From: a virus
Taxonomy: Duplodnaviria > Caudoviricetes
Strand: one strand, 5' to 3'
Virus record (IMG/VR): IMGVR_UViG_3300047160_004786
Span: 20,955 to 84,954 of that record
DNA length: 64,000 nt
Under the pieces are notes generated by a model, which saw only the letters and a list, made by a program, of their open reading frames with translations, ran no database searches and had not been told where the DNA came from. Shown one piece after another: positions 13,495 to 46,575 of the stretch. Both the position numbers and the translations under genes were made by a program. Numbering within the stretch: position 1 is the first letter of the stretch; every line of letters starts with the position of its first letter.

Positions 13495-15084
13495 ATGGCT
13501 AGCATATCTGACGTGATTGCGGCCCTTCGTAATCGTCAGCCGGCCAATCCCGCTGATCAATCGGCATCGCCGGAAGCTCCCGACATCAGTGGAGGCAGAC
13601 CGACGGTGCTAGGTGCCGTGGGACAAGCTCTCGGCACGATTGGGGGAGAGCGGCTCGGACAACTTTACGACATGGCGACTTACCCGTTCCATCATCCGTA
13701 TCCTCCAAGCTTCTCTGATAAGGATGATCCCCGGACGCAGGCTGCTATCGGGAATGCGTTAAACATCGCTGCGACGACGGCGGGAGGCGGATTAGGGGCT
13801 TCGCCTGCGGGTACTGGAGAGATGGCACTGGGGTCTGGGCTTATGCGTATACGTCAGCCCAGAACTTTTAATTTCAATGAGCAGGGTATTCCTATTATTT
13901 CCGGTAAGAGTGAGAAGGCCGCTTACGGAAGACGTGCCGGAAAATTAGCGGATGAAATAAGTCAAATGGATCCTAATGCTGGTCCGCTGGAGATAGCAAA
14001 GTATCCAGGTCCAGCTCCGTCTGAACAATTTGCACTGAAAAGGTATACCCCAAAGAAGGGGACTTCTGACAGGATGAGAAGGGCTTTAGAAAATCCGAAT
14101 GTACTCGAAGGGGTTGATCAAAGCATTCTTGAGGGAATGAATATTGGTGCTGACAAGTGGTATCACACTGAACCTGTCAGGCAGGGGTTTTTGAAATACG
14201 GTGAAGGTTTTGGCGATGAGATGTTTCGCAACTACATGAACAATGTGGCTGCGACCAGTCCTAGATCGAATTTCCCGATGAACACCAGGAATGCATCATT
14301 CTATTATCATCTGGGTGAAACACCGGACGATATTGAATTGATGAAGCTTCCGTACCCCTATGGTCATATTGCACAGAACCTTCACAAAAGAAACGTGGCG
14401 ACGAATGTGCTCGGAGAGGGATGGAACTTGAGGCAAAATCCCAAGCCGGCATCATTCTATCAGAATTTGATAGGGAATCTTGTCCCTGGAACGATGGATA
14501 CTCATGCATTCCGCAATATTGCGATGAGAACCGGAGATCCCGATTTCCTTGAGAGGATGATCAGCGAAAAGCTGGAAAGTCCAGACGCACCGCTATCAAA
14601 CATGCAGGCAATGTACGGAGAGAGGCGAGGAGACAAATTATATTATCGTCCACAGAAGCTGTTTCTTACCAATCGAATGAGTATGGATGAAGCTCAGAAT
14701 TTTCCGATATTCTGGGCATCCAGGCCAAGGCCGAATGAATACGCCGCTGCTGAGGATTTATATACTCAACTAGCAAAGGCTCGTGGATTGCAGCCTGCTG
14801 AAGGTCAGTCGGCTGCATGGGCTGGAGCAGCGGGATTGACTGGGCTGGAAAGTCCTCCAAATCGGACTGCTACACAAGCTTTGAATAATCGGATATTGCT
14901 TGCGGCTCGTCTTCGTGGAGAAGACCCGGAAGATACATTGAAATGGTTTGTGCGACAGAGGAAACCACTTCTTAACTGGGCCGCACCGTTTGCGGCCGGT
15001 GCTGCTGCGGCTGGTGCTGGCCTGGGAGCGGCGGCAACCAGAGGCCGAGAGCAGAACCCGGCAGGCCAGGGTGGCGGAACATGA
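13495..15084 (+). CDS. putative virion cargo protein with HhH-GPD DNA-glycosylase-like domain
   Basis: ATSPRSN...NPKPASFYQNLIG...TMDTHAFRN resembles the HhH plus VDTH catalytic motif; Ala/Gly hydrophobic tail. Confidence 0.55.
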   Translation: MASISDVIAALRNRQPANPADQSASPEAPDISGGRPTVLGAVGQALGTIGGERLGQLYDMATYPFHHPYPPSFSDKDDPRTQAAIGNALNIAATTAGGGLGASPAGTGEMALGSGLMRIRQPRTFNFNEQGIPIISGKSEKAAYGRRAGKLADEISQMDPNAGPLEIAKYPGPAPSEQFALKRYTPKKGTSDRMRRALENPNVLEGVDQSILEGMNIGADKWYHTEPVRQGFLKYGEGFGDEMFRNYMNNVAATSPRSNFPMNTRNASFYYHLGETPDDIELMKLPYPYGHIAQNLHKRNVATNVLGEGWNLRQNPKPASFYQNLIGNLVPGTMDTHAFRNIAMRTGDPDFLERMISEKLESPDAPLSNMQAMYGERRGDKLYYRPQKLFLTNRMSMDEAQNFPIFWASRPRPNEYAAAEDLYTQLAKARGLQPAEGQSAAWAGAAGLTGLESPPNRTATQALNNRILLAARLRGEDPEDTLKWFVRQRKPLLNWAAPFAAGAAAAGAGLGAAATRGREQNPAGQGGGT

Positions 15085-15263
15085 TCATCAACTGGTTTTC
15101 CTGTCCTGCCGATATGGACGCACTCAACACCGAAATTCAGGCGAGGAACATCACACCAGAAATGCTCGCCTCGATACTTCTTGTCGATGAGCCAAACACC
15201 AGCGGCATTGGCGGAACTGTGGTGAAATTTCGGGTGCTCTATTGGGATCCCAAGGGGTCTTGA
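15081..15263 (+). CDS. small hypothetical protein
   Basis: ATGA overlap with the upstream gene; 60 aa. Confidence 0.55.
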   Translation: MIINWFSCPADMDALNTEIQARNITPEMLASILLVDEPNTSGIGGTVVKFRVLYWDPKGS

Positions 15264-15389
15264 TTACGTGCCTGCTATCTGACAAGCTATGAAGGTCCGT
15301 CGAAACCAATCGTCGGTCTCCGTTATGCCTAGGCCTACCAAGTTCAGCCTATGCCTACAGCAAGCCGCAATGCGGCGGGAGACGACGAC

Positions 15390-15956
15390 ATGGCTATCTA
15401 TTCAACGACCGCTCAGGCGGGCATCGACGTAAATCAAGTTTTCTATCTGGATTCGCTATTTCCCGAGTATCCGGCACCGCCTTTCCTTGTTGGCGAGCTT
15501 GCCTGGGGTACGGACGGATCGGAGTGGGTGTTCGTTACCTCGACCGTGGCCGTTCCGGCTGGTGGCGTGTGTCTGGTCAGTGCGGTCCCGGGACAGTGGT
15601 TATCCTCTCCCACGGGTGGAACGGTGGCCACGGCTCCGACCGGGCAGTTGATCGGGGTGCAGGGTGGCTCGGCTGGGACCAATACGGTCGCGGCGTTGTC
15701 CACGACCCAGACCGGGAGCTTCTACTGGCTCCAGCGGGCCGGCAACTGCCCGAATGTGAGTTGTGCGGCTGCAACGACGGCGAACACAACCCCCCTGCAT
15801 TCGGTAGCGACGGTTCCTGGTCAGGTATCGGCGGCCGGTGCTGGTGTAGGCACGACCTACCAGATCAACGGTATGGTGATCTCGCAGGCGGCCGGCAGTG
15901 TGGCCGGACCGAATACGGCTGTCCTGAATTACCCGGTTGTGGGAGCGACAAACTAA
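15390..15956 (+). CDS. head decoration / minor capsid-like protein
   Basis: GGGAG RBS; AWGTDGSEWVFV and FYWLQRAG motifs; Ala/Thr-rich; near the capsid gene. Confidence 0.6.
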   Translation: MAIYSTTAQAGIDVNQVFYLDSLFPEYPAPPFLVGELAWGTDGSEWVFVTSTVAVPAGGVCLVSAVPGQWLSSPTGGTVATAPTGQLIGVQGGSAGTNTVAALSTTQTGSFYWLQRAGNCPNVSCAAATTANTTPLHSVATVPGQVSAAGAGVGTTYQINGMVISQAAGSVAGPNTAVLNYPVVGATN

Positions 15957-16008
15957 GGATCAAGTGAGGGTGGACGTTGTCCATCCTCACTCAAATGGAG
16001 ATAGTGTA

Positions 16009-17508
16009 GTGCCGGCTCTCGAATCGACGCCAATTGATTATTTTGATTATGCACTCAAGTGCCTGCGTGAGGAAAGGAGTGCGGAGGCCGCTGCCAGCTT
16101 TGAAGGAATATTGTTTGAAGACCCTACGAACGTTGAGGCGTGGATTCATCGAGGAATCGCTTTACAAAAGATGGGAAATTTTTTCGATGCAATCGTCAAC
16201 TATGACAAAGCCATTGAATTAAATCCTTATAGACCGGAATGCTATTGCAATAAGGGTGGGGCCTTTATGGCATTCGCTCAGAATTATTTTAGATCAAATA
16301 GACATACACAGGCGAATAAGCTTTTAGATCTGGCAATGAATTGCTTTGCCAAGTCAATACATATCAACGAAACTGTGCCTGAAGCATGGCTCAACATAGG
16401 AAATCTGCATCGTATTCGAGGAGAGATTCGTCTTTCAATCGATGCATACAAAAAGGCCGCTGAATTACGCAGTAATTATGTAGACGCCCTGCTTGGCCAG
16501 TCCATATCTGAGCTTGAGTTGGGGGAGTGGGATACGGCGTGGGATCATTATGAGATACGGTGGAAGTCAGGTCAGATATTTCCTCGCAATTTCCCGTTTC
16601 CGCAATGGGAGGGTGAGGATCTCAATGGAAAGTCGATATTGATTTATGCTGAGCAGGGGTACGGGGATTCCATTAATTTTGCTTGTTTCGTCCCGGAGCT
16701 TAAACGCAGGTATCCTGAAGCAATTATAGATGTGGAAGTAAGGGCACCGTTGGTACGATTGATGGGGACCTTGGGTGGAACGAGGAAGATCGTAACCAGT
16801 GGTGACAAGGTTGGTTCCTATGATTACGGCTCTCCCATGTTATCCCTGGCGAGGGTTTTAAAGATTCGACCGGACAATGTTCCGTCTCAGCACAGTTTCC
16901 TCACGGCACACCCAGATCACGTCAAGGTCTGGAAAGACAGAATAGACGCCGACTTCAAGGGTTATGATCACAAAAATAAGCTTTTGGTTGGGATTTGCTG
17001 GTCTGGTCTGGCCAGACAGGGCAACCGTGGTGCATTGGAGATCGATGCGAGGCGTTCGACATCACTGAAACAGTGGGCTTCATTGGGTACTGTAGATAAT
17101 GTTCTTTTTGTCAGTCTTCAGAAGGATGGGCCTGTCAACGAGATCAGGACGCCTCCGTTTGGCATGATGATAAGTTATTATGCCGACGGATTGAATGACG
17201 GAATGGATGATTTTGCCGAGACTGCTGGTCTTGTGGAAAATCTTGATATGGTGATTTCTGTGGATACTGCTGTGGTTCATTTGGCTGCGGCATTAGGTAA
17301 GCCGACATGGATGCTTTCTCGGTTTGACGGTTGCTGGCGTTGGTTGGGTGATCGTGAGGATTCTGTCTGGTATCCAACGTTGAGGCAATTTAGGCAGAAA
17401 AGAATTGGTGATTGGTCTGATGTGATGGAGAGGGTTGCGACCGAGTTAAAGGGGGTAGTGGCCGGCAAGTCGCCTATACCGTGGCTGGACGCTGCCAAGG
17501 CAGCATAA
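16009..17508 (+). CDS. TPR-repeat glycosyltransferase (GT-B, GT9-like)
   Basis: N-terminal TPRs; EQGYGDSINF, ISVDTAVVHLAAALGKPTW, WRWL..REDS.WYPTLR.FRQ motifs; GGAG RBS before GTG 16009. Confidence 0.85.
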   Translation: MPALESTPIDYFDYALKCLREERSAEAAASFEGILFEDPTNVEAWIHRGIALQKMGNFFDAIVNYDKAIELNPYRPECYCNKGGAFMAFAQNYFRSNRHTQANKLLDLAMNCFAKSIHINETVPEAWLNIGNLHRIRGEIRLSIDAYKKAAELRSNYVDALLGQSISELELGEWDTAWDHYEIRWKSGQIFPRNFPFPQWEGEDLNGKSILIYAEQGYGDSINFACFVPELKRRYPEAIIDVEVRAPLVRLMGTLGGTRKIVTSGDKVGSYDYGSPMLSLARVLKIRPDNVPSQHSFLTAHPDHVKVWKDRIDADFKGYDHKNKLLVGICWSGLARQGNRGALEIDARRSTSLKQWASLGTVDNVLFVSLQKDGPVNEIRTPPFGMMISYYADGLNDGMDDFAETAGLVENLDMVISVDTAVVHLAAALGKPTWMLSRFDGCWRWLGDREDSVWYPTLRQFRQKRIGDWSDVMERVATELKGVVAGKSPIPWLDAAKAA

Positions 17509-17521
17509 TGGGAGGTTTGGA

Positions 17522-18439
17522 ATGGAAGACTTGGCACCTGATTTCTCTCGGCCGACATCGGTCAATATGGACTGGAATAGCGGCGTTGGCACCGTGGAAT
17601 ATAACCAGGGTGATCGAGGACTGCTTGTCGCCTTCCGGTGGGAGCGGGTGAAGAACGATGCTAAGTCGGCTGAGCAAGGCAGGCCGATTTGGGAGAGGGT
17701 GCCGTTCGTTCGCATTCAGCACATTGGTGACCAGACGACGATCATCGAGCGGCCTGTCAAGACCACAGGGTTTGATGACGACAGGCGTCGGTTTCCTCGG
17801 CAGTGGAATGCGTTTCTGCACAATCAGGTTGATCTGCCCAATGGAACACCTACCAGCGTTTTGTTTCCCAATCAGCCGGACATCGTCGGTAACCTTCAGT
17901 CCTGGGGTATTCACGTTGTGGAACAGTTGGCAGATGTCAATTCTCACGGCATTGCCTCGATGGGTATGGGGGCTCAGGAATGGCAGAACAAGGCGAAGCG
18001 GTACTTGGAGGATGCGAAGCGTGGGGTCGATCACCATGCCTTTGAGACCTACAAGAAGAACATGGAAAGGGAACTGAGGGTTCGGGATAATCAGATTCAG
18101 GAATTGATTTCCCAGATCAATAAGCTGACGGACGCCCTGGCCAACCAGTCGATCCATGTCCAGGGAGTGATCGGGCAGCAGGTTGTCACCGGCATTCAGC
18201 AGCCGCCTCAGACGAACCCCTTCCCGTTCTCGGCTCCGATGCATCAGCCGCCGCGTCAGCAGACGTTGGAAGAGATCCTTCGACCCGCTGAGGACGTGGT
18301 GGTCGGTCCTCTCGACCCGGAATCGATTGCTCCTCCTCCGGGTTTCTTCAGTGGGGATGTCCAGTCGGAGCAGATCGCCGCCAATCACCCAAGTGAATTG
18401 GTATTGCAGCGTCGTCCTCGCACGAGGCAGACGGTATAA
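17522..18439 (+). CDS. conserved podoviral head-module protein
   Basis: GRPIWE.VPFVRI, DRRRFPRQWNAF, GTP, GIHVVEQLA motifs then a coiled coil; GGAGG RBS. Confidence 0.6.
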   Translation: MEDLAPDFSRPTSVNMDWNSGVGTVEYNQGDRGLLVAFRWERVKNDAKSAEQGRPIWERVPFVRIQHIGDQTTIIERPVKTTGFDDDRRRFPRQWNAFLHNQVDLPNGTPTSVLFPNQPDIVGNLQSWGIHVVEQLADVNSHGIASMGMGAQEWQNKAKRYLEDAKRGVDHHAFETYKKNMERELRVRDNQIQELISQINKLTDALANQSIHVQGVIGQQVVTGIQQPPQTNPFPFSAPMHQPPRQQTLEEILRPAEDVVVGPLDPESIAPPPGFFSGDVQSEQIAANHPSELVLQRRPRTRQTV

Positions 18440-18445
18440 GGAGGC

Positions 18446-18859
18446 ATGGGAATGAGCACTGATCAGGTACTGATGGGAATGGGGTTGCCGGCAGGACTAG
18501 CCGCTCGGATAGCGAATGCGGGGACTGGTCCTGTTTTGCAGGCGGCCGGGACCGGTAATCAGGCTGCGACTACCCCGATTGGTGGCAAGCAGTTTGTGGT
18601 TTTCATCGGCTCGCCTGGAACCGGTGGAAGCTTGAGACTGCCTCAGTTCGGTGGAAGTGATTTCGCCGCAGAAATTGCGGATGATTTCACGATTCACAAT
18701 GGCGTCAATGCCAACGTCACGATCTACGCTCCGCTCAATGCCACGGTGAATATTGGCGGGACGCAGTATTCGGGCAACACCGGAATTGTGTTGGCGGCGT
18801 TCAAGACGCTGAGCTACTGGCCAATCAATGCAGTCCAAGGGTTCGGTCTTTCGGCGTGA
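18446..18859 (+). CDS. small structural protein
   Basis: AGGAGG RBS; Gly/Ala-rich 137 aa with LMGMGLPA.LA start. Confidence 0.6.
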   Translation: MGMSTDQVLMGMGLPAGLAARIANAGTGPVLQAAGTGNQAATTPIGGKQFVVFIGSPGTGGSLRLPQFGGSDFAAEIADDFTIHNGVNANVTIYAPLNATVNIGGTQYSGNTGIVLAAFKTLSYWPINAVQGFGLSA

Positions 18860-18860
18860 G

Positions 18861-20228
18861 ATGCCGAGGCCGGATGAGGTTGCTCAGGCTTTAGGTCGGA
18901 CCCAGCCTCAACCGGATCAGGCTGGTTCTGTCCAGAGGATGCTTGCGGCCTTGAAGGCTGATCCTTGGGGTGCTCCCAGTTTCATGGAGGGTGATGCCCC
19001 CAGTCAGTTCGAGGCGGTCACCAGCATTCCTCCCCTTTCGTTTGTGAAGGCTCCCATCAGGGGGATGTACAACGCCTATGGAGCCATTGCTCGTGGTGAG
19101 CAGCCTGATCCCGGTGATCTGCTTGCAGTAGCGGGCGGGGTTGGGGCTCCGGGGCTTGGCAAGGCTGCGGCTCCAGGCGAGGTGGCGTTCGGGGCTGGTC
19201 CTATCAGGGCTTGGCATGCGTCTCCGCATGATTTTGGATCAATAGGCGAGAGGCCGTTCAGCTTGTCGAAGGTCGGGACCGGCGAGGGCAATCAGGCATT
19301 TGGTCACGGGATTTATTCTGCTCAAGGCAAGCCGACAGCCGACTCGTATTTCGAGCAGTTTTCGAGGAGGCCGGTTCAAGAAGGGAACATGTTCTACAAC
19401 GGCAGGCCGATTGATGAGAGGCACCCTGAGTTACCAACCCCTGACCTACAGAGCCTTGCCAAGGTTTTGGTTAATCGTGGCGACAGGTTGCATGAGGGAG
19501 ATTTCGGTGCAGCCTGGGATGAAATGTCAAAGAGACGTACGGATCCCACTGGGGTGTTTGCTCATTTTGGAAGGAACCTAGATAAGATTGACCCAACTGG
19601 ATTGTCGATAGGACCAAAGGCCAGGATGTATGAGTTGGACATACACGAGAACCCGGAGAAATTACTTGATTGGGATGTGGGAACGACAAGGCAATCTCCG
19701 CATGTCAGAGGCGTGATGGATAGGCTAGATCTCACGAGGAAATTACCAGATGCATCTGGTCAGAATATATGGAAGTATCTCGTAGGGGTACTTGAGAGAA
19801 AATATGGTGAAGGTGCTCCAGCGGAAGCCGCAAATATTTTGGATTCAGCCGGGATACCCGGCATCAAGTATCTCGACAGAGCGTCTCGGCTTGGAGGTGG
19901 AGGGTTGATACCCAAGCCTGTCATCCAGGCGTTGAACAAGCTGGATTACCTCGGGTTCGATACCCCAGGCCAAGCCATGAGAGCGTTGCGTGAGAACCTG
20001 AAGGCCGGTCACAATCCAATGGACATATGGGACTTGAACCGGCCGGAGGATGCGGCTCACGCCAAGACCATCATGGACTATCTGCACAATCCGCCAAGTG
20101 CGACCCGCAATTATGTCTCATTTGATCCCAGCACGATTGAGATCATAGGCAAGTACGGCATTCCGGCTGTGATGGGCCTGGGTGCGGCCGGGATGGAAGC
20201 AGTGAGCGGTGTCAAGGGGAAGAAGTGA
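18861..20228 (+). CDS. ADP-ribosyltransferase-like (ART-PolyVal type) putative virion cargo protein
   Basis: AWHASPHDF...SKVGTGEGNQAFGHGIY, MYELDI, GIPGIKYLD, NYVSFDP motifs. Confidence 0.75.
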   Translation: MPRPDEVAQALGRTQPQPDQAGSVQRMLAALKADPWGAPSFMEGDAPSQFEAVTSIPPLSFVKAPIRGMYNAYGAIARGEQPDPGDLLAVAGGVGAPGLGKAAAPGEVAFGAGPIRAWHASPHDFGSIGERPFSLSKVGTGEGNQAFGHGIYSAQGKPTADSYFEQFSRRPVQEGNMFYNGRPIDERHPELPTPDLQSLAKVLVNRGDRLHEGDFGAAWDEMSKRRTDPTGVFAHFGRNLDKIDPTGLSIGPKARMYELDIHENPEKLLDWDVGTTRQSPHVRGVMDRLDLTRKLPDASGQNIWKYLVGVLERKYGEGAPAEAANILDSAGIPGIKYLDRASRLGGGGLIPKPVIQALNKLDYLGFDTPGQAMRALRENLKAGHNPMDIWDLNRPEDAAHAKTIMDYLHNPPSATRNYVSFDPSTIEIIGKYGIPAVMGLGAAGMEAVSGVKGKK

Positions 20229-21214
20229 TGCCAAAGACCCTGCTTCAGATCATCAATCAGGTCCAGGGGGAGCTTGGTATTCCCCAGACATCTCCCATCG
20301 TGGGGAACCCTGATCCATCGACGCTGCAACTCTATAATCTTCTCATTGGCCTCACGACTGAGTTGAGGAGAATGAAGTTATGGACGGTCTGCCAATGGGA
20401 GATGATTATCGAGGTGCCGCCGGCCAGTGTCTTTGTGGGGGATACGGCACAGAACAGCAACCAGATCATCAATATCTCGCCTCCGCTAGCGACCTTTCCC
20501 CAGTTGGTGCCTCAGCTATTCGTTGCGGATGTCCCATCGATCCCGACCGAGTGTCGGGTTGCTGGGGTTGATTTCGGTAATAACATCCTTACCCTCAACA
20601 TGGTGGCGACGGTCAATCAGACCCAGGTGACGTTCCAGCTTGCCCAGGACACGTTTTCATTCCCGCCAGATTTTGATTTCTTTCAGAACCGGACGATGTG
20701 GGACCGGACCAACCGATGGGAGTTGCTTGGCCCCGACAGTCCGCAGATGGACCAGTGGCACCGGTCTGGCATTGTGGTGACTGGACCCAGGCGACATTTC
20801 CGCAAGCTGGGTCCTTACAGCAATGGCCAGTTTCGGGTGTGGCCAAGCCCGCTCGAACTGGTTACCAACATGCAACTTGTGTTCGAGTACATGAGCCAGA
20901 ACTGTGTGGCGGTCGCCGGGTCGGCTAGTGAGCCAATGCCGGCGTTTGCAATGAACTTTACGACCGACACAGATACGCCTTTGCTGGATGACGACCTGTT
21001 GATCAAGGGGCTGAAATGGAAATTCTGGGAGATCAAGGGGTTCAACTTCGCGGATATGAAAAACGACTGGCTTGACTATGTGGATGAGATGTATGCCCGG
21101 GACGGATCGCGGAAGACGTTGAACCTCGTGAAGCGGGTCAACCCGATATTCCTGTCGCCGGCAAACGTCAGCGACGGCTTCTATCCTGGTCCGATTGGCC
21201 CAAACGCCATGTAA
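20225..21214 (+). CDS. head-to-tail adaptor (P22 gp4 / tail tubular A-like)
   Basis: TLLQIINQVQGELG, P.DFD...NRTMWDRTNRW.L.GP.SPQ, LDDDLLIKGLKW motifs. Confidence 0.75.
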   Translation: MMPKTLLQIINQVQGELGIPQTSPIVGNPDPSTLQLYNLLIGLTTELRRMKLWTVCQWEMIIEVPPASVFVGDTAQNSNQIINISPPLATFPQLVPQLFVADVPSIPTECRVAGVDFGNNILTLNMVATVNQTQVTFQLAQDTFSFPPDFDFFQNRTMWDRTNRWELLGPDSPQMDQWHRSGIVVTGPRRHFRKLGPYSNGQFRVWPSPLELVTNMQLVFEYMSQNCVAVAGSASEPMPAFAMNFTTDTDTPLLDDDLLIKGLKWKFWEIKGFNFADMKNDWLDYVDEMYARDGSRKTLNLVKRVNPIFLSPANVSDGFYPGPIGPNAM

Positions 21215-21227
21215 TTCGGGGGTTTTT

Positions 21228-21761
21228 ATGGGTCGCAAGCTGGGAACAAAGGCTGTCAATAAGCGTGATCCGGCCTTTACCAGGGCTGTTTTAGATACGA
21301 TGCGGCTTGACCCTAAGACTGGCAGCTTGAGGTTCGAGGGGATGTACGTATCGGCCCACCTGGATATCGGCTGGAAGGGCAGTGTGGTCTCGGTCCCGGT
21401 CTCGCATGTCGTCTGGTTGGCCGCTCACGGGAGGTGGCCGGCTGAGGGGTTGCACCTCGATCACCTCGATAATGATCCACTGAATAACAAGCTGGCGAAT
21501 CTTGCGGAGGTGACGCACACCGAGAACCAGAGAAGGCGTCGAGGCCGCACTGTCAGCCATGCTTATGGGACCGGCAAATATGGCCATGGCATAAGCGTCA
21601 ACATGGATAAGCGGGATGGTCGGTTCTATGTGTCCAGGCAGATGAGCCGTGGCCACGGGAACGGCGATCTGAAGAATGTGAGGGTCTCTTTGGGGGGATT
21701 TGCCACGCTGGCGGCTGCGGAGAGCAAGGTGAGACGGGTCATTCGGAGGCTCGACCACTGA
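21228..21761 (+). CDS. free-standing HNH endonuclease
   Basis: SHVVWL..HG.WP...LDHLDNDPLNNKLANLAEVTHTEN. Confidence 0.8.
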   Translation: MGRKLGTKAVNKRDPAFTRAVLDTMRLDPKTGSLRFEGMYVSAHLDIGWKGSVVSVPVSHVVWLAAHGRWPAEGLHLDHLDNDPLNNKLANLAEVTHTENQRRRRGRTVSHAYGTGKYGHGISVNMDKRDGRFYVSRQMSRGHGNGDLKNVRVSLGGFATLAAAESKVRRVIRRLDH

Positions 21762-23938: not shown

Positions 23939-23939
23939 A

Positions 23940-30980: not shown

Positions 30981-30983
30981 CAT

Positions 30984-37811: not shown

Positions 37812-37849
37812 GATTGATAGGGCGAGGTCCAGTAGCCTCGCTCTTTTCC

Positions 37850-38074: not shown

Positions 38075-38086
38075 AGGGAGGCGATC

Positions 38087-38311
38087 ATGGGCTACATGGA
38101 CATCATGGACCCGACGGGTCACACCAAGCACATCTGGGATGCGAACAACGAGGACGAGGTTGAGGCGGCCAGGACGATCTACGATGCTCTGAAGGACAAG
38201 GGATACCGGGCCTTTCATGTCAAGAAGGACGGAAAGGAGGGTCACTTGATGGACGAGTTCGACCCGGATGCGGAGAAGATGATCCTCACGCCGCAGTTGA
38301 AGGGCGGGTGA
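38087..38311 (+). CDS. 74-aa protein ending in C-terminal Gly-Gly
   Basis: GGGAGG RBS; MD.TGHTK..WD..N.DEVEAAR...KGY.AF...FDP.AEKMIL.PQLKGG. Confidence 0.75.
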   Translation: MGYMDIMDPTGHTKHIWDANNEDEVEAARTIYDALKDKGYRAFHVKKDGKEGHLMDEFDPDAEKMILTPQLKGG

Positions 38312-38312
38312 C

Positions 38313-38963: not shown

Positions 38964-39151
38964 AAACGAGGGTCCCGTTCCGGCTGATTGAGATGCCGTG
39001 CTGTCACATGTTGGTTTGCTGGGTGAACCCACGCATACCAAATTATTGTCTTGAGTGTGGAACGCACGTGTTCCTCAAACTGAAGTTCGAGGGGATGCTT
39101 CCTGACGCACAGGAGGCTTGGTTGACGATCAAAGAGAGGGTAGAGACTTGA
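38960..39151 (+). CDS. small Cys-rich protein
   Basis: PCCHML.CWVNPR.PNYC.ECG motif. Confidence 0.55.
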   Translation: MKTRVPFRLIEMPCCHMLVCWVNPRIPNYCLECGTHVFLKLKFEGMLPDAQEAWLTIKERVET

Positions 39152-39265
39152 GAACTGTGCGGTTTACTTATCGAACCGGAAAACCTGCATGCGGTGAGCC
39201 GGATGAATATGGATGGTCGTGTTGCGGTCATCCTGACAATTGTGTGAGAACAAGAGAGGCAACAG

Positions 39266-39448
39266 ATGGACCGGATCGAAGCGGCGAGCAAGGCGGCGTG
39301 CAGGCATCAGGGGGCGGACTGGGAGACGGTCAGCCCTGAGATCAAGGACATGTATCGAGGACTGGTGAGTAAAATCCTCGATGCCTGGAAGGCCGAGAAG
39401 AAGAACGGCAAGGGCAAGAAAAAGAAGAAGGACAAGAAACGTGAGTGA
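39266..39448 (+). CDS. small protein with Lys-rich tail
   Basis: AGAGG RBS. Confidence 0.5.
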   Translation: MDRIEAASKAACRHQGADWETVSPEIKDMYRGLVSKILDAWKAEKKNGKGKKKKKDKKRE

Positions 39449-39647
39449 GATCACTGGACGCAAGGATGAGGCTGAGAGCCTTGTGAAATTTACGAGGCAC
39501 TATTTCGGCTTGTCTCCACCGGAAGCTGTCACGGCACTCGTGCGTGCGACTAACATCATCATCGATGAGTTGGATGACGAGGCCCGCGACAGAATCATCG
39601 CCGTCATCATCCATATGCTGGGCACACGCGAGAGGGATAGGAATTAG
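39441..39647 (+). CDS. small hypothetical protein
   Basis: GTG start overlapping the upstream gene. Confidence 0.5.
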   Translation: MSEITGRKDEAESLVKFTRHYFGLSPPEAVTALVRATNIIIDELDDEARDRIIAVIIHMLGTRERDRN

Positions 39648-39675
39648 GTGAGGGGCTCCCGTAGGAGCCCACTCG

Positions 39676-39924
39676 TTATCGATAGGCGTCTAGCCACAAG
39701 TCAGCGAGCGGCAACTCGCTGTCCCTGACCAAGCGGAGGAACCGCTCAGCCTTATCTATGGCCTCGAACGTCTCGGAGCCGGTTTCAAGGTCGCCGGTTT
39801 GCAGGACGGTCGTCCACCGTTCCGGGTTGCGAGGATCCCGGTAGACGACCTTGACCTTGACCTTTCGCTCTTGGTTGACCCAGGAGCCCTCCAGTTCGAT
39901 TTCGAACCGGTTTCGGTCGAGCAT
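39676..39924 (-). CDS. lone antisense small gene
   Basis: AAAGGAGG RBS; converges on hairpin GGGCTCC/GGAGCCC (39653-39670). Confidence 0.65.
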   Translation of the reverse strand: MLDRNRFEIELEGSWVNQERKVKVKVVYRDPRNPERWTTVLQTGDLETGSETFEAIDKAERFLRLVRDSELPLADLWLDAYR

Positions 39925-40122
39925 TCTTTTTCACCTCCTTTCCGTTGGAGCTTGCCAACGGGAATAAGTTGTAGCCTAATTCGTGACGCGGCGGGCGGGC
40001 CGCAAGCTTGCGAGAAGGAGGAGGCGGCAGTGAGGGCTACACATTGGGATAACAACGAGGAGGGGCTGGCTGGGTCTCGTGCGGCCCCCAGGGGGACCAT
40101 AGGGTCGCCTTTGGAGGCACCC

Positions 40123-40512
40123 ATGCCTCCGACCAGACCGGCCAGGAAAACGCCCCAGTGGGGCTCCCAGGCGGTCTGGATAGGAGCTGTGGCCTTCCTG
40201 GGCCTGGGGCTGGTGAGCATGGCGGTCTATTCGTCTCGCCAGGACCGCGAGATTAACCGCCTGGAGGTGGATGTGTTCGACCTCCAGAAGCAGACCGTCA
40301 CCCTCAACCGGCTGGTGATCGACCTGTCCGGCCGGCTGGAGGCCATCGAGCGGGGACCGAGGGTTGTCCCCACCCAGGTGGTGCAGCCCGCCAAGCCGGA
40401 CGAGACGACCCGGCGGGAGGTCGCGGAGGTGAAGGCGGCTGTCCAAGAACAAGGGCAAAAGCTGGACGCTGTGCTGGATGGGCTTAGGAACGTGCGAGGG
40501 AGGCGACGATAA
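40123..40512 (+). CDS. single-pass membrane coiled-coil protein
   Basis: GGAGG RBS; TM VWIGAVAFLGLGLVSMAVY. Confidence 0.6.
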   Translation: MPPTRPARKTPQWGSQAVWIGAVAFLGLGLVSMAVYSSRQDREINRLEVDVFDLQKQTVTLNRLVIDLSGRLEAIERGPRVVPTQVVQPAKPDETTRREVAEVKAAVQEQGQKLDAVLDGLRNVRGRRR

Positions 40513-40703
40513 TGAGGGAGATCTACGTGCTGGCCTATAACGGTGGATACGAAGGCTGGTCTGGGCCAGTACAAGCATTTCTGGATGAGGCGGAAGCATT
40601 TGGTTTTGCCAAGCAGGCTGGATTGGAAGTTTTCAAGGTTCCGGTTTGGCCCGCTGTAAATGACAAGCTGCATTGGGAGGTTGGGCCTGTGGAGAGACAA
40701 TGA
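40512..40703 (+). CDS. small phage protein
   Basis: TAATG overlap. Confidence 0.55.
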   Translation: MREIYVLAYNGGYEGWSGPVQAFLDEAEAFGFAKQAGLEVFKVPVWPAVNDKLHWEVGPVERQ

Positions 40704-40912
40704 TGAAGAAGGCTGAGATCAACGCTCTTGGGCGAGTGTTTGCGGCTGAGGTTAACGGTCGTCTGCCGTACCAGTCAAAGTCCAGGATCTTCACCGAGTT
40801 ACAGGCTGCTGGCTTGGTTGCCCCAGTGGAATACATTTTTCCTGGGAGGTTTTTGGTGAAGGGGTGGCAGTTAACGCATGCGGGACGGTACTTTTATTGC
40901 AGTCAGTGTTGA
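40700..40912 (+). CDS. small winged-helix-like protein
   Basis: ATGA overlap; ELQAAGLVAP...WQLTHAGR. Confidence 0.5.
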   Translation: MMKKAEINALGRVFAAEVNGRLPYQSKSRIFTELQAAGLVAPVEYIFPGRFLVKGWQLTHAGRYFYCSQC

Positions 40913-40919
40913 GGATGCG

Positions 40920-41567
40920 ATGATGAGTGATTGGCGAGAGAAGATGCCGGATCGGATCAAGCGGTTGCCGCAGGACGAACGCGGATTTCCAGTGCCGTGG
41001 TTTGTAGCCTGGATTGATGACGTACCGGATTTCCGGGTCGTTGACACGCCCAAGATCGGCATAGCGGTCAAGCAGCATCGCTGTTTTATCTGTGGCGAGC
41101 GGCTTGGGCAGCATCTGGCGTTCGTGGTGGGACCGATGTGTACGATCAGCCGGACGGTCCCGGAGCCGCCGTCGCATCGTGGGTGTGCGGAGTTTTCAGC
41201 GAAGGTCTGTCCGTTCCTGTCAAAGCCGAGGATGCGAAGGAACGAGAAGGATCTCCCGGAAAATAAGAAGGCCCCGGCCGGGATTATGATCCCCAGAAAT
41301 CCTGGCGTTGTGTGCCTTTGGGTGACGAGGCATTTTCGACCGTACAAGGCCCAGCATGGGGTCCACGGGGTGTTGTTTGAGATCGGGCTTCCTGAAGAGG
41401 TCGAATGGTATGCGGAGGGGAGGAAGGCGACCAGAGACGAGATCATGCATTCCATTGACACCGGCCTTCCGATTCTGCGGGGGATGGCTGAGCAGGATGG
41501 GCCGGACGGACTTGCGGCGTTCGATAAACTGAGGCTGGAAGCGTTGAAGTTGGTGCCAGCGACCTAA
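40920..41567 (+). CDS. conserved Cys/His (Zn-binding) phage protein
   Basis: RGFPVPWF...PDFR...CFICG...GPMC...EPPSH..CA.FS..VCPFL motif. Confidence 0.7.
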   Translation: MMSDWREKMPDRIKRLPQDERGFPVPWFVAWIDDVPDFRVVDTPKIGIAVKQHRCFICGERLGQHLAFVVGPMCTISRTVPEPPSHRGCAEFSAKVCPFLSKPRMRRNEKDLPENKKAPAGIMIPRNPGVVCLWVTRHFRPYKAQHGVHGVLFEIGLPEEVEWYAEGRKATRDEIMHSIDTGLPILRGMAEQDGPDGLAAFDKLRLEALKLVPAT

Positions 41568-41572
41568 AGGAA

Positions 41573-41830
41573 ATGACGGACCCCCGCGTGCCAAGAGGGG
41601 GTCCGGTCCTGATGCTAATGGACCGCGTAGGATTTCTTCCCGTCATTGGGCTATCAGGACTGATCGATAATGCCGAGTTAATTGGACAAACACAAGAGTT
41701 TTCGCCCGGGTTCAGGACGTTCCGGGGCGGAAAGGGCGGTACACGCCGCCGACAGGATGAGCTAGGGAGTTCCGACGGAGCAATACGAGCCCTGCTTGTC
41801 TATAACGGGGGCTGGACATGGCAAGCCTGA
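41573..41830 (+). CDS. small hypothetical protein
   Basis: AAAGGA RBS. Confidence 0.5.
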   Translation: MTDPRVPRGGPVLMLMDRVGFLPVIGLSGLIDNAELIGQTQEFSPGFRTFRGGKGGTRRRQDELGSSDGAIRALLVYNGGWTWQA

Positions 41831-41870
41831 CTGGCCCCAGCCCCCGACGTGTTTGTGCTATGATCGATTC

Positions 41871-42239
41871 ATGAAGGCCGAGATCCTTGCTCTAACTCTA
41901 ATGGTGGCCCCGGTTCAGTGGCAACCGTCTCAACCGTATCAGCCACCTTGTTATTACGATTGGCAGTGCGGCACCCAGGGAATTGCCCCCAAGAAATCCA
42001 AGGCGATGCCGCGTGAGTTGAAGACGCAGGAGAGAGAGAGGAAGGCCAAACCCAAGCGGGTCGAGAAGAAGAGGAAGCACCTGGGCCGGGATGAGTGGCG
42101 GCGACGGATCGGAGATGACATAGCGAATTTCTGTGGGATGTGGCCGGAAGACCCGGCGTGCAAGAGGACTGATCCGCTCGCTAATCCTCAGACTGGCCCA
42201 GAGGAGAAACCGGGGGAGTCGCATGATAACGGTCACTGA
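41871..42239 (+). CDS. small protein with hydrophobic N-terminus
   Basis: MKAEILALTLMVAPVQW; Cys pairs; basic middle. Confidence 0.45.
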   Translation: MKAEILALTLMVAPVQWQPSQPYQPPCYYDWQCGTQGIAPKKSKAMPRELKTQERERKAKPKRVEKKRKHLGRDEWRRRIGDDIANFCGMWPEDPACKRTDPLANPQTGPEEKPGESHDNGH

Positions 42240-42492
42240 GGACGATATTGCTCGTATGCATGCGGACAACGAGAACACTCAGGCTCGTGGCCTTGAGGAA
42301 CGTCAGGCTACACTTTGGTGGCAGCACGAGTGGTTCTGGCGGCCGGATCGCTGGTATGAGATCGGGACTGACCAGTATGCAAAGTGTCTGCGGTGGAATG
42401 CGTTCTGGTCTCGTGTGAGCCAGATGCAGGCGGTTGGCCAGTACGATCAGGCTGTGGCATTTCTGCGGGAGAATCGGGGAGTCACGCCATGA
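42223..42492 (+). CDS. Trp-rich small protein
   Basis: GGGGAG RBS. Confidence 0.5.
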   Translation: MITVTEDDIARMHADNENTQARGLEERQATLWWQHEWFWRPDRWYEIGTDQYAKCLRWNAFWSRVSQMQAVGQYDQAVAFLRENRGVTP

Positions 42493-42926
42493 CGACATTT
42501 ATTATGATTGTTTTCGAGCTTTTCATTTTTGGCTTTGATTTGGATGAGCCGGAATACAATCGTGTCTATGGAGCCTTCCAGGGTGTGGCTCGGCAGATCC
42601 TTATCAAGGAATGGGCACGTGCGTGAGCATGTCTTTTGTGCGATTTTCGTTTTGATTCTTCTGGTCAGTGTGGCTGTCTGGTTGGATTATTACGTTGTTG
42701 AGAAGATTTTTAAGGACAAGCGTGAGAGGATTGAGGCTGAGAGGCGGAAGAGTGGGGATGGCGTTGATGGTGGTGGTTGTATATGATGGGTGTGCCACTC
42801 GTCGTGGTGACGCGGAGTCGGTTGGCCCCCAGCCCCAATTCCCCCCGGCTGACTTCGCGTCTGATTTTGGAATGAAATGAGGTGGCGGTGCCTTTCAATG
42901 CCTTCAGAGCCTACCTCGGCTGATAC

Positions 42927-44615
42927 TTGAGAAAAGTAAAGACGCTTGCGAAGGCTCCCTTCAGCCAACCGGACGTAGTAACTAAGCCGGTCCCAGTCCC
43001 GACGGACGGCTGGGATGCTATCTCTCCCCTTGCCGACATGGACCCCAAAAGGGCTCCTATCCTCATCAACTGGGTTCCCCGCCCAGGCTGGGTCGAGTTA
43101 CGGCAAGGTAACACGATCTGGTCGCAGAATATCACCAGCTCTCCTGTCGAGACCTTGATTGTCAGGCGTGGCCCTCTTGGGGAGAGCATGTATGCGATCT
43201 CCAATGGTGGAATTTACAACGTCTCCACGCAGGGTCCGAATCCACCGCTGATGGTTAGTGGATTTACGAGCAGCCGGTGGCAGTACGTCAATTTTGCGGT
43301 TCCTGGCGGCCTGCATTACATCGTGATGGGCAATGGGATCGATGCGGCCCAGATATTTAATGGGACGACGTGGTCTGCTCTCAGCATCAGCGGGTTGCCG
43401 TCTGGGTTTTCGACGGCGTCTATTGTCAATGTAGCCGCAGCGAAGCAGAGGTTGTGGTTTACTCTGATCAATTCCTCCGTTGTGGCCTACATGCCGACGG
43501 ATGCGATTACGGGACCGATTGCCGGCACCCAGGATTTTGGCGATCTGTGGGACAAGGGTGGCGTTCTTGTCAATGTCATGGAGTGGACGATTGATGGAGG
43601 CGAGGGTCCGAATAGCTATGTCGGGTTTATCTCCTCGCACGGTCAGGTGACGGTCTATCAGGGTACGGACCCGACGAATGCGAATGCGTGGGGGTTGGTT
43701 GGGACGTTTACGTTGACGCCTCCCATTGGGTATCGGTGTGCAACGAGGATCGGGTCGGACATTGCGTTGATTACTTATCAAGGGTTGGTTCCGCTGTCCC
43801 AGGCGTTGCCGTATGACCCTTCTGCGGACAGGTCTGCGTCGATAACGAGCCGCATTCAGAACGCGATGAATCAGGCGGTGCAGCAATATGCTCAGAATTT
43901 CGGATGGCAGTATATTACATTTCCTCAGCAGACACTTGGACTTTTGAATGTTCCTGTAAACGAAAATTCTCAACAGGAACAGTATGTGATGAACACCCTA
44001 ACCGGAGCTTGGTGCAGGTTCCAGGGATGGAATGCCAACGTTTTCGAGATTTACAATAATAATTTGTTCTTTGGTGACAATCTAGGAAACGTGGTCTGGG
44101 CTTATAACGGAGCCTGGGACGCCACGAACCCCACTATTCCAAATATTCCCGGATCTCCAATTCCCCCTAATCAATACAGCTTCACTGCCGATATGCAGTG
44201 TGCTCCAAACTGGTTTGACGATCCCGGTCGGAACAAGCGGATGACGATGATTCAGCCGCTTATTCTGACCGATGGCACCACACAGGCATTGTTATCTGTA
44301 AACGTCGATTTTGCCACCAACGCCGTCGGCAGTCCCATTCAGGCGAGTGTCACAGGCGGCCTTTGGGATAAAGCACTATGGGATAGGTCTTTCTGGAGTC
44401 TGGGAAACCAGAATGTTACGACATTTGCCTCGGTGACGGCGGATGAGGGAAAGGCTCTGGCGATCAGGATGCAGGCCAACATCGTCAGTCCCGTACCCGG
44501 TGAATTTGATCTTGGTACATTTGATAATGCCACGTTTGACAATACCGGAGGCGGTACAATTACTCTTCAGGTGAACGCCTTCAACGCCATTCTTGAGTTG
44601 GGAGGGTTCCTGTGA
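42927..44615 (+). CDS. tail tubular / packaged-DNA stabilisation protein (P22 gp10-like)
   Basis: P.P.DGWDAISPLADM, RLWF, VYQGTDP, W.LVG.F, YVMNTLTGAWCRF.GW motifs. Confidence 0.8.
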   Translation: MRKVKTLAKAPFSQPDVVTKPVPVPTDGWDAISPLADMDPKRAPILINWVPRPGWVELRQGNTIWSQNITSSPVETLIVRRGPLGESMYAISNGGIYNVSTQGPNPPLMVSGFTSSRWQYVNFAVPGGLHYIVMGNGIDAAQIFNGTTWSALSISGLPSGFSTASIVNVAAAKQRLWFTLINSSVVAYMPTDAITGPIAGTQDFGDLWDKGGVLVNVMEWTIDGGEGPNSYVGFISSHGQVTVYQGTDPTNANAWGLVGTFTLTPPIGYRCATRIGSDIALITYQGLVPLSQALPYDPSADRSASITSRIQNAMNQAVQQYAQNFGWQYITFPQQTLGLLNVPVNENSQQEQYVMNTLTGAWCRFQGWNANVFEIYNNNLFFGDNLGNVVWAYNGAWDATNPTIPNIPGSPIPPNQYSFTADMQCAPNWFDDPGRNKRMTMIQPLILTDGTTQALLSVNVDFATNAVGSPIQASVTGGLWDKALWDRSFWSLGNQNVTTFASVTADEGKALAIRMQANIVSPVPGEFDLGTFDNATFDNTGGGTITLQVNAFNAILELGGFL

Positions 44616-45028
44616 GGACGGCTCCAACCAGGGAGGGGTACATCAAGAGGTTTTGGTCCTATGTGGATATTCAGGGGCCGGACGATTGCTGGAAATATAT
44701 TGGAACGATTGCGAGTAGGGGGTATGGCCAGTTCTATGCGAATGGCAAGAGTGGGTATGCTCATCGCTTTGCCTACGAAATCGAGAATGGTGAGGGCAGC
44801 ACTAAAGGGATGTTTGTCGGTCATACGTGTCATAACCATTCTTGCTGCAATCCTCATCATCTGCTTCTTGTGGCTGATCGTTCTTGTAAATTATCTAGAG
44901 ACGATGTGATAAAGATAAGGGAACTGTTGGAAGCCGGTGTCATGCAGAGAAATTTAGCCAGACAGTATGGGGTTGCTGAGAGCACGATCTATGGCATAAG
45001 GAAAAAATTCTATTGGAGGGATGTCTGA
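44612..45028 (+). CDS. HNH endonuclease with C-terminal HTH (possibly degenerate)
   Basis: RFWSYV...DCW...GYGQF...AHRFAY...HTCHN.SCCNP.HL. Confidence 0.75.
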   Translation: MRTAPTREGYIKRFWSYVDIQGPDDCWKYIGTIASRGYGQFYANGKSGYAHRFAYEIENGEGSTKGMFVGHTCHNHSCCNPHHLLLVADRSCKLSRDDVIKIRELLEAGVMQRNLARQYGVAESTIYGIRKKFYWRDV

Positions 45029-46575
45029 TGGCTGACATCCAGAGCATCATTCGAGCCTTGCAGACCGGCAGTTCGACGCCACCCTGGCGGATGCCGACTG
45101 ACCAGACTGACCCTGAGACCGGGCAGACCTTGGTGAGGACGGGTGAACCTGGGGCTGGAGGTGGGGTGAACGAGCAGACTGCCAGGATAGCTCGGGCTCT
45201 GGGCGGGGCGGCATTGGCTCCGGTGACCGGACCGGCCCAAGAGCTTGCGGATTGGTGGTCTCAGCAGCATGGTCCGACCCCTCCAGGGTTGGGGGGAGCC
45301 CTTGCCCCGGCTGCGGAATTGGGAATGGCCACGTTCATTCCTGAGTTGAGGGGATTGCGGGCTGCTGGTACACTCGGAGAGGCTGCTGGAGCGGCTGTCA
45401 GAGGAGCACTGGGGAATGTCGGACGAGGAGCGGAAACCGCACCAGCGGGTCTTGCCGGGGCGGCACGAGGCATCAGGGAAGCTCCCGGAGGAGCCGTTGC
45501 CGGTTCACCGGCAGGAGGCGGTGCAGCGGCGGAGAGTGGAGGATCATCCGCTCTACGACCAGGGGGAGGAGTGGGATTTGGCAGCGTGGAGGAAGCACAG
45601 AGAGCGGCAGCGGCGGCCATGGGTTCCCGCAAGCCCCTCGCCGGCCTCCCGGTCAAGCCAATCCAGTTCCCCGACGGCAGCTACTACGCCCCCGGTCCCA
45701 TCGACAAGCTCCACAGAGCCGCCGAGGACTATGCCAGAAATTCCGGGATCCCCTACAACCCGGTAAGAACTTACGTCCAGGCTGAGCCTGAGCGTGCGAA
45801 GCGGATAGCGGCAGCGTTTGATGCGATGCCGCACGACCCGGAGGACCCCCGGGTTAGAGCTTCCTATCAGGCTCTGGCGGACGAGACCCTCGGGCAATAC
45901 CGGGCTCTGAAGGACGCCGGCTACAAGTTCGATTTTATCCCGCCTGGGGCGGAAGACCCGTATGCGGCCTCTCCGCGTATGGGCGGGGCTGATTTAGCTA
46001 AAAATAATCATCTGTGGGTGTTCCCGACCGACACCGGGTTTGGGACATCGACGGCGGATATTGCCAAGCAGCATCCTCTACTCGCTCTCACCAATGAGTA
46101 TGTGAACGGCAAGCAGTTGCGGGTGAACGACATATTCCGCATCGTGCATGACATGTTTGGTCACTACAAGGAGGGGACTGGGTTCAGGGCCACTGGCGAA
46201 GAGAACGCCTGGAGGTCTCACGCCGGGATGTATTCCGACCTTGCGAGGCCGGCTATGACCTCGGAAACCCGTGGACAGAACAGCTGGGTGAATTTCGGTC
46301 CACACGCAGAAGCAAACAAGGGTGCCAGTGGGGCTGACACGATCTATGCTGAGAACAAGGCTGGATTGCTTCCTGAGTGGGCTTGGGAGAATGGCAGGCT
46401 CGATCCCGTACAGGAGGCTGCTGATAAAATAAAGGGTGGAACTGAGCCGACTCCGAAAGAGGGATTTAATCCTGCCCCATTGATGCAGAGCCAGGGGAGC
46501 CGGACGCTTAGCCGGGAGACGGGTGCTGGTGGAGGGGCTCCTGATCTGGAAGCGATAAGAGTGAGAGGGCGATAG
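45028..46575 (+). CDS. putative virion cargo protein with zincin-like HDxxGH domain
   Basis: GGAGGG RBS; FRIVHDMFGH...GEENAW..H...SETRGQNSWVNFGP motif. Confidence 0.6.
   Translation: MADIQSIIRALQTGSSTPPWRMPTDQTDPETGQTLVRTGEPGAGGGVNEQTARIARALGGAALAPVTGPAQELADWWSQQHGPTPPGLGGALAPAAELGMATFIPELRGLRAAGTLGEAAGAAVRGALGNVGRGAETAPAGLAGAARGIREAPGGAVAGSPAGGGAAAESGGSSALRPGGGVGFGSVEEAQRAAAAAMGSRKPLAGLPVKPIQFPDGSYYAPGPIDKLHRAAEDYARNSGIPYNPVRTYVQAEPERAKRIAAAFDAMPHDPEDPRVRASYQALADETLGQYRALKDAGYKFDFIPPGAEDPYAASPRMGGADLAKNNHLWVFPTDTGFGTSTADIAKQHPLLALTNEYVNGKQLRVNDIFRIVHDMFGHYKEGTGFRATGEENAWRSHAGMYSDLARPAMTSETRGQNSWVNFGPHAEANKGASGADTIYAENKAGLLPEWAWENGRLDPVQEAADKIKGGTEPTPKEGFNPAPLMQSQGSRTLSRETGAGGGAPDLEAIRVRGR

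Follow-up and report, generated by a model that had tools for sequence, protein, structure and literature searches.

Do three enzyme-like genes scattered through the structural operons of a short-tailed phage belong to one system that loads effectors into the virion and, if so, what do they have in common? The question is raised by a stretch of 64,000 nucleotides (the window), the final 64 kb of the 84,954-bp IMG/VR record IMGVR_UViG_3300047160_004786, which comes from an uncultured short-tailed phage and is 92% complete by CheckV. Genes 1, 2 and 3 start at window positions 13495, 18861 and 45028, and a first-pass annotation had taken them for packaged effectors with a constant delivery frame and swappable payloads. 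We find evidence for the swapping and have to redraw the frame: each protein combines a short N-terminal tag, a leader of its own and one payload. Since related phages swap or fuse these parts, the three are probably enzymes that the virion takes up and brings into the host, although loading is known for a single relative only, and we regard them as a protease-independent, dispersed variant of the known packaged-effector systems.

The resemblance described in the first-pass annotation is readily found. A [VI]xxAL sequence lies near the N-terminus of all three genes (VIAAL in gene 1, VAQAL together with MLAAL in gene 2, IIRAL in gene 3), and a Pro/Gly-rich front is followed by a different enzyme-like domain in each: glycine, alanine and proline make up 38–49% of the leaders and 26–33% of the payloads, which are of three distinct kinds (DUF7178 in gene 1, an ADP-ribosyltransferase, ART, in gene 2 and the phrog_3170 domain in gene 3). 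The leaders themselves, each ≈100–180 residues, show no mutual homology by profile comparison (probability <1%, E ≈ 0.1), which was the test set in advance for a constant delivery frame; a single homologous 120-residue delivery domain was dropped on this result. What is left of the constant frame is a tag of about 10 residues common to the three, together with a junction motif and a Gly/Ala tail that are found in two of them only.

The leaders nevertheless turn out to be units in their own right, though unrelated to one another, once their homologues are collected, as had been proposed. Residues 1–130 of gene 1 have only four real relatives among 1.84 billion representatives, and a fifth came from a viral-contig scan. 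The relatives of this leader (module A) carry differing payloads: an ART in P0004 and P0128, an H-E-x-x-H domain in P0126 and a small uncharacterised domain in P0125, with the leaders 62–66% identical while the payload changes. Module C, from gene 3, is joined in P0370 of the related locus L010 to a payload different from that of gene 3. Among the ≈360 homologues collected, 77 leader pairs match across payload families at E < 1e-6, the best of them linking an ART protein and a DUF7178 protein at 75% identity over 111 residues. Some leader classes recur on all three payloads, namely P-R-D-x-x-G-K-W, P-V-D-H-D-P-F, M-A-G-W-D-D and a class starting M-A-E-L-R-P-Y. Two payloads can also share one polypeptide, and in 12 such fusion proteins phrog_3170 is followed either by DUF7178 (7) or by ART (5); the genes of the window are dispersed in structural operons with one payload each, as the first-pass annotation had it. 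One leader can thus be joined to various payloads and one payload to many leaders: the sequence comparisons show recombination of the two between phages, support swappable payloads and mark each leader as a real, transferable module.

The tag is the smaller element, and its nature is best read from L010, a genuine relative of this phage (its tubular-tail-B-like protein, tubeB, is 66% identical, and the adaptor-like protein of the window is 78% identical to the L010 gene labelled SU10_adaptor). In L010, genes 1 and 3 have their counterparts in P0125 and P0370; residues 3–49 of these two proteins are 81% identical, after which the proteins diverge into module A and module C. Because two L010 genes have this 47-residue tag at such identity, we take the tag to be a real element shared within one phage, which by these alignments has shrunk to ≈10 residues in the present one. 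Here it is carried by five proteins: genes 1–3 and two small virion-module proteins, of which the 137-residue one has orthologues in L010 and L007 that finish with the same kind of motif. The double tag of gene 2 is paralleled in the homologue P0096, and a near-identical tag is present on P0133 and on the product of L011 7040–8569. In L011 (tubeB 53% identical) several proteins encoded between the adaptor and tubeB genes open with the tag, including a non-enzymatic one of 509 residues. A broader tag pattern, defined after the data had been seen, gives 6 matches in the 31 virion-module proteins where 0.27 are expected, and 4 within the first 45 residues where 0.024 are expected (0/2000 shuffles in either case).

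A second kind of short terminal motif seems to exist in this phage. The 672-residue internal-type protein encoded at 54157–56175 has three D-P-F-A repeats at its N-terminus; these resemble the P-V-D-H-D-P-F leader class, which is carried by many homologues from the ART, DUF7178 and phrog_3170 families and is found at both ends of P0004 (L004 9947–11419).

Genes 1 and 2 have two further features in common, both seen in the first-pass annotation. One is the junction motif, which reads G-E-[MV]-A-[LF]-G-[AS]-G and recurs exactly at the leader/payload border of ART and DUF7178 homologues (P0062, P0337, P0361). The other, the hydrophobic Gly/Ala tail, is a family feature, present in 94/121 ART-family proteins and, after a conserved P-L-L, in 58/119 DUF7178-family proteins; a tail of the gene 2 type also ends P0128 and gp5 of Sulfitobacter phage phiGT1. 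It could be asked whether all of this is a chance likeness of low-complexity Gly/Ala/Pro-rich sequence in three genes of unrelated organisation, since pairwise BLASTP among them is marginal (E 0.017 at best, between genes 1 and 2) and the leader profiles do not match one another. That idea is largely refuted by the identity of the 47-residue tag in L010, the position of the junction motif at the same border in both families, the conservation of the tails and the excess of tag matches, and we give it hardly any credence. The central domains of genes 1 and 2 are indeed richer in AT than their flanks (GC 0.46 vs 0.59 and 0.52 vs 0.62), as had been noticed. Because GC at third codon positions is nearly flat, this is an effect of amino-acid composition, that is, of Gly/Ala/Pro codons in the flanks, and low GC was rejected as a sign of acquired cassettes.

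Gene 1 exceeds the Pfam threshold for DUF7178 (PF23802) only just, scoring 28.7 bits where 27 are required (E 1.5e-6), and most of its homologues carry the domain. An AlphaFold2 model built from a 40-sequence alignment (pLDDT 92.3, pTM 0.90) was compared exhaustively with solved structures, and ranks 1–22 are all HhH-GPD enzymes, headed by the Thermotoga 8-oxoguanine glycosylase 3n0u_A (Z 10.3, rmsd 3.7, 179 aligned residues). Further matches include a queuine salvage enzyme, endonuclease III, NTHL1, MutY, OGG1, MagIII, AlkA and, at Z 3.9, PaMx11 gp46; the first unrelated row appears only at Z 3.5. Foldseek on the same model is weak by itself (1xqp, probability 0.41). The invariant Lys317 and Asp335 are spaced by 18 residues, as are Lys120 and Asp138 of endonuclease III in its D-T-H-I-F-R context (numbering checked on 2abk), and a Gly/Pro-rich loop of the glycosylase kind precedes the invariant Asp335 (G-N-x-x-P-G-x-x-D-T-H). 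An L-P-G-V-G-type hairpin (the canonical helix-hairpin-helix, h-P-G-h-G) is not recognisable by eye before Lys317, and there is no match to any solved glycosylase at the sequence level; sequence searches of solved structures, run with the proteins and with the family profiles, yielded nothing of use. The payload shares its predicted fold with the HhH-GPD glycosylases (endonuclease III, OGG, MutY, AlkA) and with the queuine salvage enzyme DUF2419 at Z 5–10, and differs from the glycosylases in ≈140 extra residues and in the attached virion leader. The model thus supports an HhH-GPD fold with endonuclease III-like Lys and Asp, in line with the glycosylase-like label first given to the domain. 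A search of the available papers found none that mentions DUF7178.

The ART label of gene 2 is likewise supported, through its family. Homologues of gene 2 carry PF18760 (ART-PolyVal), which is matched at E ≤ 0.01 by 27/40 aligned family members (best 1.6e-7); scored singly, members reach 20–28 bits over profile positions 6–47 only, the gathering score being 31.2 bits. Gene 2 itself (P0002) has no Pfam match at E ≤ 1. In the family alignment (A3) Y41 and D161 do not vary at all and H8 hardly varies. An H-Y-D configuration, with His on strand 1, Tyr on strand 2 and Asp on strand 5, is described for the polyvalent-protein ARTs of the Tox-ART-HYD2 clade (PMC5512222). The conserved His, Tyr and Asp of the payload fit that pattern, so that it is probably of the H-Y-D type, and together with the profile matches of the family they support a divergent ADP-ribosyltransferase of the ART-PolyVal kind. 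A viral-contig search for close relatives of the gene found none. The start of gene 2 is ambiguous, with an ATG at 18828, 18861 or 18939, the last being the public gene call. A start at 18939 would drop the first tag copy and place the second at the extreme N-terminus.

The third payload, phrog_3170, is widely distributed (>675 homologues at 50–60% identity) and matches no Pfam family. Its model is as confident as that of DUF7178 (pLDDT 92.5, pTM 0.91) and finds no solved relative in the PDB, whether by Foldseek (best E 0.2) or via exhaustive alignment (best Z 2.6), and only unnamed viral clusters in the Atlas of predicted structures; the domain is a candidate for a new fold. The zincin-like label of the first-pass annotation is not supported: the invariant H-D-x-x-G-H (H-x4-H) lacks the Glu of H-E-x-x-H. 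Weak structural rows for an aromatic amino-acid hydroxylase or an ACE fold are insignificant, and both were set aside. Among predicted viral structures the domain lies inside proteins of 1000–1500 residues labelled LPD, ART-PolyVal, acetyltransferase or head morphogenesis, and it occurs within a 2772-residue "large polyvalent protein" of Planktothrix phage Pag-Yong1. It is present in hundreds of phages, including genes of mycobacteriophage cluster C1. Among cultured phages, phrog_3170 is carried by Synechococcus phage MinM2 as well as by Pag-Yong1, and Roseobacter phages CRP-901 and CRP-212 are further cultured carriers of the modules described here.

Do these proteins enter the virion? Indirect support comes from phiGT1, whose gp5 has the architecture of gene 2 (leader, ART, the same K-Y-G-I Gly/Ala tail), with 33% identity in the payload, and is encoded in the head module between the portal and scaffold genes. 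It was detected in purified virions by mass spectrometry with 12 spectra and an SC/MW of 0.29, which is higher than both the 0.2 that the authors ascribe to contamination and the 0.15 of tubeB (PMC10386132, Table S3). Its leader differs from that of gene 2 and has no [VI]xxAL tag, and the authors assigned it no function (PMC10386132); the examined region of phiGT1 contains no DUF7178 gene and no phrog_3170 gene. A DUF7178 homologue of Microcystis phage MJing1 (WKV16971) is also encoded in a head module, and both phrog_3170 and ART domains are known from proteins of the MuF/head-morphogenesis and polyvalent kinds. These observations bear on the idea that genes 1–3 are late, unpackaged enzymes that modify phage DNA, virion proteins or host functions in the producing cell, with leaders that are mere disordered linkers. 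HhH-GPD-fold proteins do serve phage DNA hypermodification, PaMx11 gp46 being the one matched here, and sugar-modifying genes stand in the same operons in this phage and in L010; but a homologue of the same architecture is present in phiGT1 virions, MuF fusions and polyvalent proteins contain the payloads as well, and the leaders are more conserved across changing payloads than would be expected of disordered linkers. We consider unpackaged enzymes improbable.

A somewhat better case, which we still think unlikely, can be made for a role in ejection: the three would be structural internal virion proteins, with enzyme domains directed at the envelope during DNA delivery like the transglycosylase domain of T7 gp16, and not effectors of cytoplasmic takeover or anti-defence. 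The three genes lie in or adjoin the internal-protein cluster, some DUF7178 homologues are fused to the cell-wall hydrolases SLT and SleB, the hydrophobic Gly/Ala tails resemble membrane-active segments, and the tag also heads non-enzymatic internal proteins of L011 that have Gly/Ala hydrophobic stretches. Against this, the HhH-GPD fold and the ART imply nucleic-acid, protein or NAD substrates rather than peptidoglycan, and the payloads are sporadic among relatives and so not essential for ejection.

Packaged effectors are known from several systems, and the comparison with these defines what is particular here. Polyvalent proteins (Iyer, Burroughs, Anand, de Souza, Aravind 2017, PMC5512222) share with genes 1–3 the domain repertoire (ART-PolyVal and, among fusion partners, LPD-associated domains), the virion-gene context and the proposed delivery with the DNA. 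Genes 1–3 are likewise encoded among the virion and packaging genes of a portal-terminase phage; each, however, has one payload, where a polyvalent polypeptide has 2–15 effector domains, and each has its own leader and stands at a separate place in the structural operons. DUF7178 and phrog_3170 are not among the domains described in the available part of PMC5512222, and the polyvalent-protein concept as set out there does not include leader modules, a tag shared within one phage, a junction motif or a Gly/Ala tail. Toxin and effector fusions of MuF (SPP1 gp7/Mu F) also join a constant virion-incorporation part to variable enzymatic domains, and one phrog_3170 relative lies in a "head morphogenesis domain" protein, a MuF-like context; profile searches matched no MuF domain in genes 1–3, and the front ends here are, unlike those of MuF fusions, short, of low complexity and of several unrelated types.

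In T4 a short N-terminal capsid-targeting sequence is common to the otherwise unrelated packaged internal proteins IPI–III. The tag common to several putative cargo proteins of one phage is of this kind, and the packaged T4 ADP-ribosyltransferase Alt, injected with the DNA, parallels the ART of gene 2. There are differences: T4 is a myovirus and this phage a podovirus, the ART is by its conserved residues of the H-Y-D type instead of R-S-E, small proteins can carry the tag at the C-terminus and no cutting motif of the protease type follows it. A search of the 92%-complete record for prohead proteases of the S78, S77 and ClpP families gave no match, the S77 search being weak in that its control matched nowhere. 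Encapsulin cargo-loading peptides, short terminal peptides by which various enzymes are directed into an HK97-fold shell with no need of proteolysis, offer a second parallel, by analogy only, as there is no sequence resemblance. Genes 1–3 are thus distinguished from the known systems by single-payload, dispersed effectors, by short address parts of several exchangeable types, by the apparent lack of a protease and by two payloads not described before.

Taken together, we think it rather likely that genes 1–3 are accessory virion cargo of a P22/Mx8-type podovirus without a recognisable prohead protease. Each protein would consist of a short N-terminal tag, common within the phage to several internal proteins, a gene-specific Gly/Ala/Pro leader, a junction motif (two genes), one enzyme payload and a Gly/Ala tail (two genes). 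Tag and leader would dock the protein to an internal component of the procapsid, which could be the portal, the scaffold, the interior of the coat or the ejection-protein core, and a few copies would be enclosed without the leader being clipped off. The Gly/Ala tail may be a membrane-active or a core-binding segment. The enzymes would leave with the DNA and act early in infection on host DNA, proteins or signalling molecules, probably by ADP-ribosylation of host targets, by N-glycosidic cleavage or strand incision of DNA or nucleotides, and by some metal-dependent reaction.

Several observations weigh against this account. A payload is found nearby in only 2/82 loci with a related tubeB gene, ART in both and DUF7178 or phrog_3170 in none, and because of this we take the payloads to be accessory and not tied to this tail type. 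As no homology is detectable among the leaders, the three need not have a receptor in common. At ≈10 residues the tag is short, and its enrichment was calculated post hoc; the start codon of gene 2 is uncertain, P0002 has no Pfam hit and its relatives score under the ART-PolyVal gathering threshold; the SLT and SleB fusions could point to an envelope rather than a cytoplasmic role for DUF7178; and the virion signal of phiGT1 gp5 is modest.

Features of genes 1–3 and of the surrounding structural operons (window positions; aa, amino acids)
Feature	Position	Strand	Basis or remark
Portal, 970 aa	6175..9087	+	phrog_12082, E 2e-165
Scaffold candidate (9641-11011), then GIY-YIG homing endonuclease	between portal and major capsid gene	+	
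Major capsid protein	12477..13427	+	phrog_9953, E 3e-94
Gene 1, 529 aa: leader, DUF7178 payload, Gly/Ala tail	13495..15084	+	ORF; PF23802
Gene 1 tag, aa 4-12, VIAAL	13504..13530	+	pattern match; conserved in P0125, P0126, P0128
Gene 1 leader module A, aa 27-114	13573..13836	+	62% identical to P0004 of L004, E 3e-34
Gene 1 junction motif G-E-M-A-L-G-S-G, leader/payload border	13816..13839	+	
Gene 1 DUF7178 payload, predicted HhH-GPD glycosylase-like fold	13921..14976	+	AlphaFold2 model, structural comparison
Gene 1 invariant Lys317 and Asp335 (D-T-H-x-F-R)	14443..14514	+	columns K192, D210 of alignment A2
Gene 1 Gly/Ala-rich hydrophobic tail	14977..15039	+	
TPR-glycosyltransferase and small genes	between gene 1 and gene 2	+	
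Gene 2, 455 aa from 18861: leader, ART-PolyVal-like payload, Gly/Ala tail	18861..20228	+	
Gene 2 tags, VAQAL and MLAAL	18873-18908 and 18930-18956	+	pattern match, two copies
Gene 2 junction motif G-E-V-A-F-G-A-G	19176..19199	+	
Gene 2 ART-PolyVal-like ADP-ribosyltransferase payload	19203..20147	+	His130, Tyr163, Asp283 (18828 numbering)
Gene 2 K-Y-G-I... Gly/Ala hydrophobic tail	20148..20201	+	
Tail or adaptor-like protein directly 3' of gene 2, then HNH gene	20225..21214	+	phrog_6013
Tubular-tail-B-like (tubeB) protein, PHROG name "amidase", then HNH gene	42927..44615	+	phrog_5107
Gene 3, 515 aa: leader and phrog_3170 payload, without Gly/Ala tail	45028..46575	+	
Gene 3 tag, IIRAL	45037..45063	+	pattern match
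Gene 3 leader module C, aa 66-118 (from 45028)	45223..45381	+	42% identical to P0370 of L010, E 8e-9
Gene 3 phrog_3170 payload, enzyme-like conserved domain	45565..46422	+	profile match, model
Gene 3 invariant H-D-x-x-G-H (H-x4-H)	46147..46164	+	columns H195, D196, G199, H200 of alignment A1
Small virion-module protein, 137 aa	46578..46991	+	
Tag near C-terminus of the 137-aa protein	46869-46895	+	
GNAT "head assembly protein", internal-virion-protein cluster	46996..47439	+	phrog_4470; phiGT1 gp16 annotation
Small virion-module protein, 159 aa	50569..51048	+	
Tag at aa 24-32 of the 159-aa protein	50638-50664	+	

Profile searches of the window proteins show a podovirus-type structural module on the + strand, whose closest cultured portals, from Bradyrhizobium, Rhizobium, Brucella and Myxococcus Mx9 phages, are only ≈30% identical. 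Genes 1–3 have the same orientation as the portal, capsid, adaptor, tubeB and internal-protein genes and are tightly packed with them: gene 1 starts 68 nt past the major capsid gene; gene 2, taken from 18861, starts 2 nt after the previous stop and its end overlaps the start of the next gene; gene 3 directly adjoins an HNH gene, and its ribosome-binding site is of the GGAGG type. The tubeB-like gene is in synteny with phiGT1 tubeB and its subsequent GNAT gene, and large internal-virion-type proteins are encoded downstream of the GNAT gene.

Three homing-endonuclease genes, one GIY-YIG and two HNH (11671–12408, 21195–21761, 44612–45028), lie within the structural operons, one immediately 3' of the adaptor-like gene and one immediately 5' of gene 3; an HNH gene occupies the matching adaptor position in L010 and L011. 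Between the adaptor-like/HNH genes and the tubeB-like gene, ≈21 kb (21800–42900) hold short or odd ORFs on both strands, the eight longest of which gave no match in a Pfam search; the equivalent slot of L010, ≈10 kb long, is filled with glycosyltransferase, methyltransferase and sugar-nucleotide genes. Between the head and tail genes, 15937–17508 encodes a TPR-repeat protein that has the motif of a family-9 glycosyltransferase, and L010 too has a GT9 gene in its structural region.

Other neighbours merit a remark. The portal profile spans residues 47–526 only, and the ≈440 C-terminal residues that it leaves unexplained could project into the capsid. Three consecutive proteins of 316, 475 and 1017 residues are encoded 5' of the portal (760–6172), all with signal-peptide-like hydrophobic N-termini, the largest with a weak Sortilin-Vps10 (beta-propeller) match. 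In L010, a 272-residue protein (13327–14145) that is 29% identical to the major capsid protein of the window over 311 aligned positions sits 3' of the GNAT gene in the internal-protein cluster, a place at which no counterpart was seen in the window.

For the payload families themselves the results have consequences of their own. DUF7178, so far of unknown function, gains a predicted fold and candidate catalytic residues, a Lys and an Asp like those of glycosylases/lyases, while phrog_3170, being widespread, strongly conserved and confidently modelled with no solved relative, is a good target for structural and functional work. Beyond the accessory cargo of this one phage, we put forward, with a good deal of reserve, a broader scheme: podoviruses without a prohead protease might use a two-tier, plug-and-play address code, in which a phage-wide terminal tag is combined with an exchangeable leader matched to the particle type and then with any payload from a common pool, virion-delivered glycosylase/lyase-like enzymes and new-fold H-x4-H enzymes included. 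Such a code would resemble that of encapsulin peptides, with effectors traded as cassettes. If it is true that tag and leader load the capsids of protease-less podoviruses, they would yield a testable rule to predict which phage proteins accompany the DNA into the host and a means of filling phage particles with proteins of choice, and they would explain how effectors move as cassettes between unrelated phages.

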